IMG/VR virus record: IMGVR_UViG_3300046373_000093
Location: 1 to 54,793 of that record
Source of the DNA: a virus
Lineage: Duplodnaviria; Caudoviricetes
Strand: one strand, 5' to 3'
DNA: 54,793 nucleotides
The notes beneath the pieces are model-generated. The model made no database searches. It saw only the letters and a list, made by a program, of their open reading frames with translations, and was not told where the DNA came from. Position 1 is the first letter of the stretch, and each line of letters opens with the position of its first letter. Positions 3,168 to 39,990 of this stretch are shown one piece after another. Made by a program: the position numbers and the translations under genes.

Positions 3168-4196
3168 ATGGGCCGGAAGCCAACGAAGCACGAAAATCTG
3201 CCGCCGCACATGCGCAAGCGCACGCGGAAATACGGGACGTATTACTATCTGGACACTGGCAAGACGCCCCGAAAGGAGATCCCGCTCGGGAGCGATTACA
3301 TCCTGGCCTTGAAAAAGTATGCCGAGCTCCACGAGATCGGACCAACCGCCGGCGCCACTTTCGGTGACCTCATCACCAAGTATGAGGCTGAGGCACTACC
3401 GAACCTGAAGCCGAACACGATCCGCGTCCAGAAGTCGGACATCAAGCACCTCCGCGAATATTTTAACGACGCGCCGCTGGATCAGATCGAGCCCGCATAC
3501 CTGGAGCGGTTCAAGCGCAAGCACAAGGACAAGCCCACCACGGCAAACCGGTGCCTGCGCTTGATCTCGACCATGTGGAACCTGGCGCGCAGCTGGGGCT
3601 ATACCAGCCTGCCAAATCCGCGCGCCGGCGTGAAGGGGCACAAGCTGCAGAGGCGCACCGTCTACATCACTGACGAGGTGTTCAATGCGGTCCATGGCCA
3701 GGGAAGCGCCCTACTGAAGGACGCTCTCGACCTGGCATACCTGACGGGTCAGCGGCCCGGGGACGCCTTGAGCATGAGCGAGCACGACATCATCGACGGG
3801 CATCTCGTCATCAAGGCCCAGGACAAGACTGGCAAGCCGCTCAGGATCCAGATCGTCGGTAAGCTCGCGGAAGTCATCGAGCGCATTCGCGCCCGGAAGA
3901 AGGGACTGAAGGTGGTGTCGACGGCACTGCTTGTGAATCTTCACGGCAAGAAACTGACGCCGGCCGTGCTGCGCAACCATTTCGAGGATGCGCGCGCCGC
4001 GGCTGCCAAGGCCAACCCGGAGCTTGCCGACCAGATCAAGGCAATGTGGTTCTACGACCTGCGCGCGAAGGCTGCCGACGACACCTCGGACGAGCGCGGC
4101 GACCAAGCGGCGAGCGACCTGCTGGGACACGAAACCGTTACTACGACGAAACGCCACTACCTGCGCCGTGGCAAAGTTGTCGCGCCGGTAAAGTGA
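3168..4196 (+). CDS. int: Tyrosine integrase
   Basis: Catalytic motifs TGQRPGD, QDKTG, FYDLRAK, LLGH, KRHY; adjacent to attP. Confidence 0.96.
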   Translation: MGRKPTKHENLPPHMRKRTRKYGTYYYLDTGKTPRKEIPLGSDYILALKKYAELHEIGPTAGATFGDLITKYEAEALPNLKPNTIRVQKSDIKHLREYFNDAPLDQIEPAYLERFKRKHKDKPTTANRCLRLISTMWNLARSWGYTSLPNPRAGVKGHKLQRRTVYITDEVFNAVHGQGSALLKDALDLAYLTGQRPGDALSMSEHDIIDGHLVIKAQDKTGKPLRIQIVGKLAEVIERIRARKKGLKVVSTALLVNLHGKKLTPAVLRNHFEDARAAAAKANPELADQIKAMWFYDLRAKAADDTSDERGDQAASDLLGHETVTTTKRHYLRRGKVVAPVK

Positions 4197-5668: not shown

Positions 5669-5857
5669 ATGAAGCCGCGCACAGACCTCATCACAGCCAG
5701 CCGGGTCGACCTGACGCTGGCGCTACTCCCGCTGATCGGGTGGTGGGAGGCGTCATGGACGCTGGCGGCGAACGGCGTGCCGCTCGACGTCGCGGTGCGG
5801 GTGATGGTCGTGCCGGGCGCGCGGCGCACTATGTCGCTACCAGCATCTCCGGGGTGA
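5669..5857 (+). CDS. Small hypothetical protein
   Basis: 62-aa ORF right after the amidase. Confidence 0.55.
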   Translation: MKPRTDLITASRVDLTLALLPLIGWWEASWTLAANGVPLDVAVRVMVVPGARRTMSLPASPG

Positions 5858-5897
5858 CGGTATTGCGGCAAGCTCGCTCGAAGCCGGCGTGACGGTG

Positions 5898-34666: not shown

Positions 34667-34873
34667 TCAGTCGACGGCAACGTTGCCGGCGCCAGGGTGC
34701 TCAAGCGTCCGCATCAGTTCGAACTGCAACTGACCAATGGCCCAGAGCATCCCAAGCGCAGCGACATCGCGGCACGAGCCACCGGCAGCATGGAAGCCCT
34801 CGACAGTGACCCAGCCCGCTTCAATGGTGACCTTGCCGAATTTGGTGAGAGCGGCTGGCTTTGCGTCGAGCAT
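34667..34873 (-). CDS. Hypothetical protein
   Basis: GAGG RBS. Confidence 0.55.
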   Translation of the reverse strand: MLDAKPAALTKFGKVTIEAGWVTVEGFHAAGGSCRDVAALGMLWAIGQLQFELMRTLEHPGAGNVAVD

Positions 34874-35160
34874 GTGCGCCTCAGGCCGGCGAGAGCTTCG
34901 TGATACCGAACAGCGCAGCGTGCAGCCAGTCCAGCGGCTTCGCCCACAGTGGGCAGTGCAGCTCCATGGCGCCGCCGATACCTTCGGCCGTGATCTCGGC
35001 CTTGACTGGGCGGGCGCGCATCCACCACTTCGATAGCAGCGGATGGACGCCTTGGGCGGTGTGCATTTCTTGCATGGCGAACCTCAAATAAAAAAGCCGC
35101 CGGCGCAGGGGATGCGGCAGGCGGCGAAGCTCCCGGATTTGCCGGAGAGCGGAGACAGGT

Positions 35161-35490
35161 TGTGGCGGCCGGTGCTGATCTCCGGCTTTGGGGAAGCAAT
35201 ATCAGGACGGGTAAAAGACTAAAGGCACCCTAATACCACAAGGTCATCAGCCTGACCATTCACCACACGACTGCTGACTGAGGCCGTTCCCAGCACTTTC
35301 GTAGCAGCCCGATTCAAACATCGGGACAATCAGCATCCGTGTGGTTTGTAGTGGGAGCGCCCAGGACTTAGACAAGGCAGACCCTGGGCCGCATATGTGC
35401 TCCCACCACACAAAGCCGCACTACCTCTCAAGTCCTATGCGGGTCCAGCGAAGCAGTCGCGGCTCTGTGTGGTCACCGGTTTGCCGGTGA
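35161..35490 (-). ncRNA. Structured RNA array in late-operon leader
   Basis: Four long stems bounded by CCACAC/GTGTGG and TGTGGTG/C(A/G)C(T/C)ACA; last unit is a cloverleaf with complementary loops. Confidence 0.6.
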
Positions 35491-35500
35491 GGCGGCAAAA

Positions 35501-35620
35501 TCAGAGGCGCCCGAAGATGTTACGCTTGTAGAAGCGGCGGACGGCTTTCGCGACGTCAGTTTTGCCAGCGGCGGTACGCTTGGCCTGGATGCGATCAGCT
35601 TGCTTTTTGGTCGTTACCAT
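35501..35620 (-). CDS. 39-aa highly basic peptide
   Basis: GGAG RBS; MVTTKKQADRIQAKRTAAGKTDVAKAVRRFYKRNIFGRL. Confidence 0.6.
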   Translation of the reverse strand: MVTTKKQADRIQAKRTAAGKTDVAKAVRRFYKRNIFGRL

Positions 35621-35707
35621 GCGATCTCCGGAAATAGAAAAGCCCGCTGACCTTTCGGGGCGGGCTCGGTGTGCTCCATGGCTATCTGCCAAGTGAGCCG
35701 TAAAACG

Positions 35708-35743
35708 CAAAAGCCCGAACGTTTGAGGGTTCGGGCTTTTTTT
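35708..35743. terminator. tR'-like bidirectional terminator
   Basis: AAAAGCCCGAAC...GTTCGGGCTTTT; a second hairpin at ~35638-35667. Confidence 0.75.
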
Positions 35744-35771
35744 TGGACGAGCGAAATCGCCCAGTGACTAA

Positions 35772-35800
35772 ATTCTACTCGAAATAAATCTTCGTTGCAA
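35772..35800 (-). promoter_or_regulatory. Late promoter pR'
   Basis: TTGCAA-17 bp-TAGAAT overlapping the end of the Q-like gene, followed by terminators. Confidence 0.75.
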
Positions 35801-36203
35801 CGTTATTTTTCAGCTTCAACTCAAGCCCGGCGCGCGCCGCCTCTAGTACGTCAACGTAGTTTGCATTTTGGAACCGCCAAGCTGTGGAGATTCCCTGGCT
35901 TCGATAGATAGCCCATCGATGCTGCATGGTTAGGCTATCAACCATAGCATTGACTGCTGCACCCATTTTCAGGTCAGCCGCACGCTGCTGCTCGTACACG
36001 TCAAGCTCATCAATTACCTCGCCGTTCAGCCTCATTCGACCGGCGCCGAGATCGCGATCATCGGTATTCATGTAGTCGACCCAGCACGCCATGAGGATGG
36101 CGTATGGGTCGGGCTTATCGAAAGCCGGCTGTGCGGCCTCCGCCTTGCGGACACGGCGTAGGGTCGGGGCAGTGGGCAATCCAGTCAGGGCAAAGGCGGG
36201 CAT
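35775..36203 (-). CDS. Q-like late antiterminator (putative)
   Basis: Last early gene before pR'/tR'; helical C-terminus. Confidence 0.65.
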   Translation of the reverse strand: MPAFALTGLPTAPTLRRVRKAEAAQPAFDKPDPYAILMACWVDYMNTDDRDLGAGRMRLNGEVIDELDVYEQQRAADLKMGAAVNAMVDSLTMQHRWAIYRSQGISTAWRFQNANYVDVLEAARAGLELKLKNNVATKIYFE

Positions 36204-36363
36204 GGCGGTCTCCGGTAAGTACGCGCGCAACTCTAGCATGCGCCTCGGAAATTATTGCCGTGCCCGAACTTTAATGAAAAGCAACATGTTGCTCGGCGGC
36301 GACGTTTCGTTACCTCTTCTATATAGTGCCGCGCAGGTCGGTGCGCGGCTTGCCGCCTGCCAG

Positions 36364-39272: not shown

Positions 39273-39990
39273 GGGCGGCCTCCTCGCGCTGCTTCAGCTG
39301 CCACTTCGCCAACTCGCCGGCGACCCACTCCACGCCCTTGGAAGTGAACTTGGCCGTGCTGTAGGCGTGACCGCTGATCTGCGCGGTGCCAGCCCGCACC
39401 TCGAACCGGCCGGCCTCGATGTGCTGAGCATGCGCCGTCCATTCGCCGTTCAGGACGTACATGATCTTGGTGGCTCGCAGGAACTCGCGGAACTCCGGCT
39501 CCTTGACTTTTAGGAGCTTCGCCACCTGACGGAAGGTCATCAGACCAGTGGATTCCACGTAGCGGCCGACGAACTCGACGGCCGGTGCCGCGGCGGCGAG
39601 TTGCTCGGCCTGCGCCGTGATCACATCCTGCTGGTCAGCGGCCAAGCGCAGCGCCTCGGCGAAGGTGCGCGGCAGGGCCGGCACCGGCACCGGCGGCGCA
39701 CCGCGCTCCAGCTCTTGCCAGCGGTCGATGATCCGCGCACGCAGGTCGGCGTTATATCCCGAGACGACCACCAGCGTGTCGCGGAACGACAGCAGGAACT
39801 CGCTGTAGGTCTGGCCGTTCTGCGGGTGGTGGTAAGGGGTCTCGTTTCCAGCAATGACACCCTCAGCGATGAGGCGCCGTATGGTTTTCAGAACATTGTC
39901 GTGCGAGCTCCTGGTCAACTCAGCAATCTCGCGGCTCGACATCGTGACGTCGGCGCCGACGGTGGTTTGCAATGCAAGAATGCTTCCCAT
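39265..39990 (-). CDS. Rha / antirepressor KilAC-domain protein
   Basis: MSSREIAELT...IIDRWQELE...LPRTFAEALRLAAD...FRQVAKLL...FTSKG. Confidence 0.88.
   Translation of the reverse strand: MGSILALQTTVGADVTMSSREIAELTRSSHDNVLKTIRRLIAEGVIAGNETPYHHPQNGQTYSEFLLSFRDTLVVVSGYNADLRARIIDRWQELERGAPPVPVPALPRTFAEALRLAADQQDVITAQAEQLAAAAPAVEFVGRYVESTGLMTFRQVAKLLKVKEPEFREFLRATKIMYVLNGEWTAHAQHIEAGRFEVRAGTAQISGHAYSTAKFTSKGVEWVAGELAKWQLKQREEAAHA

Follow-up and report, generated by a model that had tools for sequence, protein, structure and literature searches.

A candidate cassette of tRNA-derived and hairpin RNAs in the late-operon leader of temperate phages

Introduction

The DNA considered here, called the window throughout, is the whole of IMG/VR virus record IMGVR_UViG_3300046373_000093, a soil phage whose 54,793 nucleotides (nt) are estimated to be 92% complete and have 61% G+C. 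On its minus strand, at 35490-35158, a 5' hairpin and four stem-closed RNA modules stand in the leader that precedes the predicted late genes. With moderate confidence, and from comparison of sequences, we interpret this region as an accessory cassette of tRNA-derived and hairpin RNAs, carried in the late-operon leader of temperate phages of Massilia-like Betaproteobacteria and probably processed by the enzymes of tRNA maturation. Kin of the window phage include Massilia prophages. The comparisons described below establish the structures and their conservation, as well as the tRNA ancestry and the design of the cassette.

Four structured modules in the window

The modules occupy two alternating positions, here named slot A and slot B. 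An earlier note on this DNA, written from the letters alone, had described a two-module unit that occurs twice with differing interiors and is bracketed by CCGG-CAAA(U)-CCGG hairpins. Direct reading of the sequence bears this out: every element that had been named lies at its place on the minus strand, both copies of the unit are present with interiors that differ, and the flanking hairpins occupy 35490-35473 and 35150-35131. For the evaluation of folding, each module alone was compared as RNA with 200 dinucleotide shuffles.

The array opens with the hairpin UCACCGG-CAAA-CCGGUGA (35473-35490), whose 7 base pairs (bp) abut the first CCACAC and whose fold gives z -4.17. Module 1 (35406-35472; slot A, class A1) takes the form of a long hairpin. 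CCACAC/GUGUGG closes it as part of a 14-bp stem, CCACACAGAGCCGC/GCGGCUUUGUGUGG, and the interior carries the motif GAGAGGUAG. Its fold of -40.9 kcal/mol (-28.9 on the plus strand) was equaled by 0 of the 200 shuffles (z -6.91). Module 2 (35348-35410; slot B, plain-hairpin class) has the acceptor-like closing stem UGUGGUGGGAGC/GCUCCCACUACA and holds UGUGG in common with module 1; no shuffle out of 200 folded as well (-34.1 kcal/mol, -28.6 on the plus strand, z -4.52). The same is true of module 3 (35263-35344; slot A, class A3), at -38.9 kcal/mol (-30.2 on the plus strand; z -4.82; 0/200). Its closing stem, CCACACGG.UGCUGAUUG/CAGUCAGCA.UCGUGUGG, spans 18 positions in the form CCACAC-NNN-UGCUGAYUG/CAGUCRGCA-NNN-GUGUGG and encloses two small hairpins.

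Module 4 (35161-35267; slot B, class B1) has a 7-bp acceptor, UGUGGUG/CGCCACA, in which 7/7 positions are paired and which is followed by ACC at 35160-35158. A D-like hairpin, GGUCA-GGCUGA-UGACC, occupies 35257-35242, and a T-like hairpin, GCCGG-AGAUCAGCA-CCGGC, occupies 35186-35168 and adjoins the acceptor 3' strand; its stem is paired at 5/5 positions, with no spacer between it and the acceptor. The loops of these two hairpins are GGCUGA and AGAUCAGCA, and between them stands a middle arm of 14 bp with a 16-nt loop. The minimum-energy fold is a four-way cloverleaf of -34.7 kcal/mol (-30.3 on the plus strand).

All four modules are 4-12 kcal/mol more stable on the minus strand than on the plus strand. 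The advantage of the transcribed strand stems from G-U pairs, and it fits an RNA that is read in the direction of the late genes. For the whole region of 416 nt, z is -4.94 on the minus strand and -3.85 on the plus strand.

A conserved design of interchangeable slots

Related loci (numbered L002 onward) were collected by searches with the 154-amino-acid (aa) protein encoded directly upstream of the leader (35775-36239, minus strand), which is kept in all of them, and with its alignments. These searches yielded 4 and then 18 viral loci, together with 3 loci in Massilia genomes and 34 metagenome loci. Deduplication left 44 distinct leaders including the window, of which 6 are cut off within 400 nt and 38 are untruncated. 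A scan of viral contigs with a DNA pattern added three cassette loci (L113, L154, and L163), for a total of 20 related loci with the cassette.

The order of the cassette is a 5' hairpin, slot A (CCACAC/GUGUGG), slot B (UGUGGUG/CRCCRCA plus a T-like hairpin), usually ACC, an element that begins UGUCUCC, and a terminator. The 5' hairpin has 5-8 bp and stands 0-2 nt before the first CCACAY in 17/17 cassette loci examined, and its pairing is held across 8 different stem sequences in these 17 loci. Its pairs were counted from per-sequence folds, as the MAFFT alignment set the strands out of register. Slot A shows at least six uninterrupted outer pairs in 18/18 modules. The sixth pair is CG in 15 modules and UA in the other 3; at each of pairs 7 and 10, four pair types occur among the 18.

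The interiors enclosed by slot A belong to unrelated classes. A long hairpin with GAGGUAG (class A1) occupies the slot in window module 1, L003, L059, and L032, while the 18-position stem with UGCUGAYUG/CAGUCRGCA (class A3) is found in window module 3, L007, L012, L017, L019, L051, and L010. A seven-sequence alignment of class A3 shows two-sided changes at pair 7 (GC/UA/CG) and at pair 8 (GC/AU/GU). Sequences resembling tRNAs fill slot A in L002, L005, L018, L026, and L163, and other interiors are present in L006, L030, L056, L113, and L154. Among the 20 loci there are at least 6 types of slot-A cargo and at least 6 types of slot-B cargo.

The acceptor 5' strand of slot B, UGUGGUG, starts inside the GUGUGG of slot A. 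In 14/18 slot-B modules, CRCCRCA pairs with this strand at 6-7 of 7 acceptor positions and is adjoined, without a spacer, by a T-like stem with 4-5 of 5 pairs; the two purines opposite U in the 3' strand vary only between A and G. The four exceptions are the plain hairpins of window module 2 and L002, which have the same ends, and the short form in L005 and L006, which was misplaced by the parser. The tail that follows slot B begins with AC in most modules and is ACC (ACCC in L030) in 8 of the 16 that were parsed correctly. This tail looks like a remnant of a discriminator base plus CC.

Changes between close relatives mostly preserve slot-B pairing. With the first-named locus as reference, pairs that changed were kept in 3/3 cases for L007/L012, 2/2 for L032/L059, and 3/3 for L003/L018, and the kept changes of L007/L012 include a double change from CG to UA in the T stem. 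The outcome depends on the choice of reference: L012/L007 gives 2 kept and 1 broken, L059/L032 gives 3 and 0, and L018/L003 gives 2 and 2. Over four gap-free comparisons, each with the first-named locus as reference, the tally is 8 pairs kept and 3 broken; comparisons with L017 were left out because an indel makes gap-free pairing invalid.

One sequence motif, UUAGCUGAUG, recurs in different structural contexts. It is present in the arm that replaces the anticodon arm of the tRNA-like slot-A module of L018 (L018 3398-3493) and in the slot-B D-like hairpins of L007, L012, L019, L026, L113, and L154; GCUGAU also lies within A3 stems. The recurrence of UUAGCUGAUG suggests that these RNAs may have a shared binding partner.

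Relationship to tRNAs

Slots that score above the Rfam tRNA threshold (RF00005; gathering cut-off of 29 bits) occur in six cassette loci, five with an altered anticodon region and one with a normal tRNA-Tyr. The altered modules are in slot A of L005 (41.4 bits), L018 (41.4 bits), and L163 (41.7 bits) and in slot B of L032 (42.1 bits) and L059 (43.2 bits), and in each of them 29-42 nt replace the anticodon arm. The remaining locus, L026, holds a tRNA-Tyr(GTA) of normal class II form in an extra slot. ARAGORN reports odd "tRNAs" of 97-98 nt in L002 and L018. When four tRNA-like modules are aligned, they form a cloverleaf in which 12/27 pairs change on both sides, the replacement arm included; because the replacement arm covaries, it is a conserved structure and not debris. 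A recent capture of a host tRNA was considered and rejected for the L059 module, which gave only generic T-arm matches (28 nt at 82%) to three Massilia genomes.

The slot-B tRNA-like modules of L032 and L059 have the same acceptor sequence as window module 4. The earlier note had called this last unit cloverleaf-like, and a covariance model, R1, now supports its kinship with tRNA-like RNAs. The seed of R1 consists of seven B1-class modules (L007, L012, L019, L051, L026, L113, and L154), with the window and its two closest subclass members left out. The model matches the window at 35158-35267 on the minus strand over model positions 1-104 of 104, with 36.5 bits and an E-value of 3.3e-8, a value that is rough by the search tool's own description. 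R1 also matches L163 and L056, and at E<=0.02 it finds the B2, B6, and B4 modules of L030, L018, L017, L032 (which is positive for tRNA), L003, and L010. Of two further weak matches in the window, one at 39583-39674 on the minus strand lies inside a 439-aa open reading frame (ORF) and was taken as chance, and the other is at 5809-5894 on the plus strand.

Standard searches give a different result for module 4, and these weigh against its assignment to tRNA-derived RNAs. ARAGORN finds 0 tRNA or transfer-messenger RNA (tmRNA) genes in the window, and Rfam 15 finds no family there at gathering thresholds. At E<=10, a search of 34800-35900 returned no tRNA, Y RNA, or YrlA match, and the matches that did appear are at chance level and mostly on terminators. 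The view that no Rfam family can be assigned to the array therefore holds at both thresholds. Module 4 has the 7-bp acceptor of a tRNA with the T arm stacked directly on the 3' strand, but it is without a 5-bp anticodon stem and 7-nt loop and without the canonical D loop (GG) and T loop (UUCRANY). On the strength of the R1 match, module 4 is best regarded as a degenerate member of a tRNA-derived family, even though it fails the tests of the tRNA model and ARAGORN. Its anticodon loop and its canonical D and T loops would accordingly have been lost from a tRNA ancestor. To judge by these features, the modules are not decoding tRNAs.

Interlocking helices and a loop-loop contact

The earlier note had also proposed that neighboring modules compete for a common GUGUGG. 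This arrangement is seen in the window sequence and is likewise kept in each of the 20 cassette loci. Because UGUGG belongs both to the A stem, on its 3' strand, and to the acceptor that follows, on its 5' strand, the two helices are mutually exclusive. Each of them shows change that preserves pairing: the A stem from CG to UA at pair 6 (3/18), and the acceptor as UA, UG, and CG at pair 6. By these comparisons, the competition between helices is real and conserved, and it may act as a gate.

A kissing loop between GCTGAT and ATCAGC in the last unit fared less well. The two loops can indeed form 5 Watson-Crick pairs, and a sixth if a stem pair gives way, but the bases concerned hardly vary. In class B1, the D-like loop reads GCUG(A/G) and the T-like loop (U/C)(C/U)AGC, so that by eye 4-5 bases can pair in 12/12 modules. 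Within the seven-sequence seed, three of the four pairs of this contact are invariant and one varies on one side only. Rough arithmetic indicates that a match of 4-5 bases between such loops is not rare and that one of 4 bases would arise by chance, and loop complementarity is thus weak evidence. The data are consistent with a kissing loop.

The adjoining UGUCUCC element

Outside the array coordinates, the region 35089-35157 on the minus strand (z -3.53) contains UGUCUCC at 35157-35151, the hairpin CCGG-CAAAU-CCGG at 35150-35131, and an intrinsic terminator at 35126-35089. The first late ORF follows the terminator, with its ribosome-binding site at 35085-35082 and its ATG at 35075. In the cassette loci, 2-4 nt separate the acceptor 3' strand from the start of the UGUCUCC element, and the Rfam model RF02278 (Betaproteobacteria toxic small RNA) begins at the same place. 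Toxic small RNAs of this family act through a CU-rich anti-Shine-Dalgarno seed. RF02278 scores 30.4-35.1 bits in L002, L059, L030, L017, L006, and L019, all below its gathering cut-off of 50 bits. The window copy (35157-35089) gives no RF02278 match on the minus strand at E<=10, and by eye it has the same parts as the copies of the relatives.

The likeness to RF02278 lies in a start with UGUCUCC(UCC) followed by a hairpin and terminator, and the relatives match over the whole model. The leader element differs in its placement, which is behind a tRNA-like module and directly before the ribosome-binding site of a late gene. Members of RF02278 in Burkholderia cenocepacia are described in PMC4603805 as expressed small RNAs of 57-92 nt with unknown function.

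Occurrence of the cassette

The cassette is present in 17 of the 38 untruncated leaders that adjoin homologs of the 154-aa protein. Another 10 carry the UGUCUCC element and terminator alone, and a motif search found neither the cassette nor the UGUCUCC element in the remaining 11. The pattern GTGTGGTGAATGNNCA matched at least 118 stretches of viral contigs; among 80 of these, only 4 lie within 260 nt of a slot-B 3' end, the contig of L012 itself being one of them. A blastn search against 50,697 phage records produced one 34-nt chance match only. The pattern GCCRCCRCWN{2,5}GTCTCC was tried on 401 genomes of the family and proved uninformative, as 110 matched and a reversed control gave about as many.

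Additional material is found at the same site in relatives. At about 820-1240 of L005, and directly after the terminator in L051 and L012, a gene on the opposite strand stands in place of the late genes, and by eye its product has the appearance of an antitoxin-type helix-turn-helix protein. The cassette locus is evidently an insertion hot spot.

A number of relatives, though not the window, also have a conserved non-coding element of about 250 nt, placed after the first terminator and before the cassette. It lies at 3500-3780 in L003 and at about 3000-3330 in L007, and is also present in L005, L006, L019, L026, L030, L032, L051, and L056; only its 3' part occurs in L009, L020, L025, L029, and L037. 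The element begins with a strong ribosome-binding site and a mini-ORF of 2-8 codons (ATG AAG CAC TAG and variants), and its 3' end is the hairpin GCCGGACGCUGUAACCGGC. Rfam searches at the gathering threshold and at E<=0.05 gave no match to it. The element may represent a second leader RNA, or else an attenuator coupled to translation.

Upstream control region and neighboring genes

A promoter scan places a promoter-like site, TTGCAA-17-TAGAAT, at 35772-35800 on the minus strand, where it overlaps the 3' end of the 154-aa ORF. In relatives the site reads TTGCAAC..TAAACT, and it is kept at the start of every leader inspected. Two terminator-like hairpins with U tracts, at about 35737-35705 and 35667-35631 (region 35631-35737, minus strand), lie within 170 nt of it. 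Both were read by eye and are absent from the minus-strand list of the terminator scan, so that they, and the conservation of this layout in relatives, rest on direct sequence reading. A promoter followed by two terminator hairpins fits a late promoter under antitermination control.

The 154-aa protein has a mean column identity of 69% in a 20-sequence alignment, and Pfam and PHROG searches returned zero family matches. Its AlphaFold2 model has a mean predicted local distance difference test (pLDDT) score of 72, and Foldseek gave nothing for the model at E<=1e-3. The top VIA-align match of the model is region 4 of an extracytoplasmic function (ECF) sigma factor, with Z 6.6 and a root-mean-square deviation (rmsd) of 2.4 over 68 residues, and the modeled likeness appears to sit in the C-terminal half of the protein. 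Matches to a Q-engaged complex and an AlpA complex have Z 4.7 and an rmsd of about 8, and at all of these Z values, that of the sigma match included, similarity may reflect only a common helical arrangement. The earlier note had placed the array in a Q-controlled leader. The layout of promoter and terminators fits that label, but the protein matches no Pfam or PHROG family and its model is nearer to sigma region 4 than to Q or AlpA. The identification of the 154-aa protein as a Q antiterminator is unproven.

Between the two terminators, at 35700-35680 on the minus strand, lies the motif CGGCUCACUUGGCAGAUAGCC, which relatives have too. A motif of the form CGGCCCACUURGCAGAUAGCYYUGGGGCU follows the first terminator, at 35700-35673 on the minus strand in the window, and is present in most relatives. 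In L005 and L056 it stands directly before the cassette, a placement which indicates that it moves with the RNA modules. The motif may act as an RNA signal, or as a promoter used by the 154-aa protein with its likeness to sigma region 4.

The leader also includes a putative 39-aa basic ORF (35501-35620, minus strand, from the ORF list) with a GGAG ribosome-binding site. Many relatives (for example L007, L019, L030, and L059) have at this place an unrelated basic ORF of roughly 46 aa (MRYQARWSNG...RRK), and family searches matched neither of these small ORFs to any family. The stretch between the 39-aa ORF and the first late ORF is non-coding on the minus strand. The downstream genes on the same strand are small ORFs, an HNH endonuclease gene (33269-32946), the gene for the small terminase subunit (32804-32331), and that for the large terminase subunit. 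The integrase gene, at 3168-4196, is far from the array, and a reading of the array as the phage attachment site attP was rejected on account of this distance. Among the 30 window ORFs scanned, one matches the Pfam family Tae4, a type VI amidase effector (E 3.9e-14), and one matches a Rap1a immunity protein (E 1e-9); together these look like an antibacterial effector/immunity pair on a phage.

Interpretation and alternatives

The steps that we infer beyond these structures concern transcription, cleavage, gating, and the action of the released RNAs. Transcription of the minus strand would start at the promoter where the 154-aa gene ends and would reach the cassette upon read-through of the two upstream terminators. 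Slot A would supply an interchangeable cargo hairpin closed by CCACAC/GUGUGG, and the acceptor and T arm of slot B would serve as a handle for host tRNA-maturation enzymes, with RNase P acting at the 5' side and RNase Z or E at the 3' side. Long A stems would be suited to RNase III. The leader could thus be cut at fixed points that free the modules as stable small RNAs, and the same cuts could determine where the downstream CU-rich UGUCUCC element or the late mRNA has its 5' end. One strand serves both as the 5' side of the acceptor and as the 3' side of the A stem. Formation of the tRNA-like fold would therefore require the A stem to open or to be cleaved, and this requirement might order or gate the cuts. 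A tRNA-like RNA that is not a tRNA and has a 7-bp acceptor stem is reported to be cleaved by RNase P and to have CCA added to it (PMC4201824).

Several observations weigh against this interpretation. Competing forms were compared by nearest-neighbor energies, with each helix forced in turn and tRNA tertiary contacts ignored, and the form with the A stem closed equaled or exceeded the slot-B acceptor form in stability in 16/16 loci. The gap ranges over 0-14.6 kcal/mol, is 5 kcal/mol or less in 12/16 loci, and is 3.0 kcal/mol in the window. Besides being at least as stable, the A stem is transcribed first, so the tRNA-like fold may rarely form. Recognition by RNase P presents another difficulty. 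The enzyme contacts canonical bases of the tRNA elbow, and module 4, whose D and T loops are without them, may therefore not be a substrate. An acceptor context of G at -1 and U at +1 is not preferred by RNase P, and these are the bases of the module 4 acceptor. None of the Pfam families matched among the 30 window ORFs is an RNA-repair, tRNA, or other RNA enzyme, and of the sequencing runs searched for the region, no RNA run contains it; the single run with the region in full is of DNA and may come from the source sample.

Other unfavorable points concern conservation. The folding energy of module 4 is ordinary (z -1.18), as 29/200 shuffles are as good. L051 has 3 broken slot-A pairs relative to L019 and only 4/5 T-stem pairs, and so has a decayed look. 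B1 stems are 99.3% paired but nearly invariant, and 77/500 shuffles reach the observed covariation, which fails to be significant because the stems hardly vary. Finally, the cassette is absent from 21/38 untruncated relatives, all of which keep the same promoter. Late expression therefore does not need the cassette, which on this distribution is conserved but dispensable.

Among the alternatives, we give a limited but real chance to the proposal that the RNAs are decoys acting in trans. Hairpins and tRNA look-alikes without an anticodon would sequester a host factor that has tRNAs as its ligand or target, for example a defense nuclease directed at tRNAs or a toxin that modifies the acceptor end, and the locus would be an anti-defense locus with exchanged cargo. 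The great diversity of cargo between close relatives is typical of arms-race loci, and dispensability of the cassette also agrees with such a role. The tRNA-like modules keep acceptor, D, and T arms, and their anticodon arm has given way to a conserved and covarying insert instead of decaying at random. However, the defenses that phage tRNAs counter mostly cut tRNAs in the anticodon loop, and the modules are without this usual cut site. In favor of such a role, L026 has a real tRNA-Tyr at this place, and a preprint reports a phage tRNA-Tyr that counters a retron (10.1101/2023.03.15.532788). Window module 4, having lost the canonical D and T loops, would be a poor mimic, and no RNA-repair or tRNA enzyme accompanies it among the Pfam families noted above.

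Of comparably limited probability is a more elaborate form of our interpretation, in which the locus is a modular small-RNA cargo system. The 5' hairpin, the clamps, and the tRNA-derived handle would form a fixed frame, the clamp would gate the release of the CU-rich small RNA, and the cargo would act in trans. By hiding the 5' strand of the handle, the clamp would let the state of the cargo hairpin control the tRNA-like fold and cleavage by tRNA enzymes. The cargo, consisting of tRNA mimics without an anticodon but with a conserved 33-nt insert, and of long hairpins, would target host factors.

It is rather unlikely that the modules are functionless remnants of phage tRNA genes in decay, with conserved flanks that persist as recombination joints of mosaic phage genomes. 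Module 4 is not recognized by tRNA models and its fold is unexceptional, L051 has broken pairs, the B1 stems are without significant covariation, and the cassette comes and goes among relatives, all of which this explanation would accommodate. It does not sit well with modules 1-3, which are far more stable than shuffles, or with the 7/7 acceptor and 5/5 T-stem pairs of module 4. Pairs that changed were mostly kept, the pairing of the 5' hairpin survives 8 stem sequences, the replacement of the anticodon arm is conserved and covarying, and G-U pairs stabilize the transcribed strand in all four modules. Covariation among homologs, to which the earlier note had looked, is found in part, at slot A pairs and in the tRNA-like alignment but not to a significant degree in the B1 subclass. 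The picture is one of mostly conserved structures, together with some copies in decay.

A folding switch that acts in cis is slightly less probable still. The exclusive helices (CCACAC/GUGUGG and UGUGGUG/CRCCRCA), together with a third UGUGG at 35234-35230, would set the use of the terminator or of the first late ribosome-binding site. The array does lie between terminators and this ribosome-binding site, competition for GUGUGG occurs in each of the 20 cassette loci, some pairing-preserving change is seen in both helices, and the energies of the two forms are within 5 kcal/mol of each other in 12/16 loci. But both helices lie clear of the terminator (35126-35089) and of the ribosome-binding site (35085-35082), the A-closed form is at least as stable in every locus compared, and no ligand or protein sensor is apparent. 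The relatives that are without the cassette keep the promoter, and ten of them keep the UGUCUCC element and terminator as well. An essential switch role for late expression is thus unlikely.

Action of the inverted repeats as DNA, in protein binding, recombination, or packaging, is very improbable: the conserved CCACAC/GTGTGG does form an inverted repeat, some 2.3 kb upstream of the HNH and terminase genes, but the modules fold 4-12 kcal/mol better on the transcribed strand through G-U pairs, stem sequences differ between modules with pairing kept, the slots contain matches to tRNA models, and the integrase, and hence probably attP, is distant. Two further candidates were rejected. An RNA anti-CRISPR, in which the 5' hairpin would mimic a CRISPR repeat, was ruled out for three Massilia genomes, where the hairpin of L003 and L018 has no multi-copy match with 3 or fewer mismatches. 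A hammerhead ribozyme was suggested by CUGAU/GAAA motifs, but their order is wrong and Rfam gives no match.

Comparison with known systems

Certain known phage RNAs resemble parts of the cassette. Lambdoid (Shiga-toxin-converting) phages carry ordinary decoding tRNA genes in the late-promoter leader. Like these, the loci described here have RNA genes of tRNA type on the late strand, in the interval from the late regulator or promoter to the first late genes, and L026 has tRNA-Tyr(GTA). They differ in that no window module passes ARAGORN or the Rfam tRNA model, the anticodon arm of the tRNA-like relatives is replaced by 29-42 nt, and the modules lie in conserved slots flanked by stems. The small stable RNAs of the phage T4 tRNA cluster and the tRNA-like domain of tmRNA keep the acceptor and T arm and are handled by tRNA enzymes without decoding, which is also the part of a tRNA retained here. 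No sequence or model match links them to the cassette, the ARAGORN tmRNA search was empty, and those RNAs are without slots and competing flanking stems. The tmRNA is also mentioned in PMC4201824.

YrlA and other bacterial Y RNAs are non-decoding RNAs with acceptor, D, and T arms that are found in phages too, according to PMC4201824. The cassette modules are likewise non-decoding tRNA-like RNAs. In contrast, YrlA ends in a Ro60-binding stem and its acceptor is capped, whereas the cassette module ends at the acceptor stem. YrlA also adjoins a gene for Ro60 (TROVE), which the window phage is without: TROVE (PF05731) was not found in the whole 54.8-kb record, and control genomes gave matches. By eye, no GNCGAAN0-1G motif was seen in the region. 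A link to Ro60 and Y RNAs was rejected on the grounds that there is neither a TROVE gene nor an Rfam match to Y RNA or YrlA.

Within the literature searched, on phage tRNA-like RNAs in connection with anticodon nucleases or decoys, on such RNAs in prophage late regions, and on Massilia phage RNAs, no description of such a locus was found. Similar phages could be among the phage YrlA RNAs listed with PMC4201824, although the missing TROVE gene and absent Rfam match argue against this. Phage genes of tRNA type in a late leader are known. Here they take the form of non-decoding tRNA derivatives in a slot-and-clamp cassette.

Concluding remarks

The tRNA genes of phages are well known, and their role against defenses that cut tRNAs is a current topic, whereas non-decoding tRNA look-alikes in phages have barely been described. 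The locus presented here provides a conserved and swappable set of RNAs at a defined place that is probably expressed late, with a built-in competition between a clamp helix and a tRNA-like acceptor. It also offers a natural series, with sequences that satisfy the tRNA model at one end and degenerate forms at the other. The array could seed one or more new RNA families, as Rfam 15 covers none of it, and cultivable Massilia lysogens with the cassette (L006 and L007) allow direct study. If the modules are inert remnants, then the locus records the decay of phage tRNA genes inside conserved flanks. If instead the cargo system is true, it would represent a new class of phage RNA locus, with a logic like that of RNA anti-CRISPRs or tRNA-flanked guide arrays.

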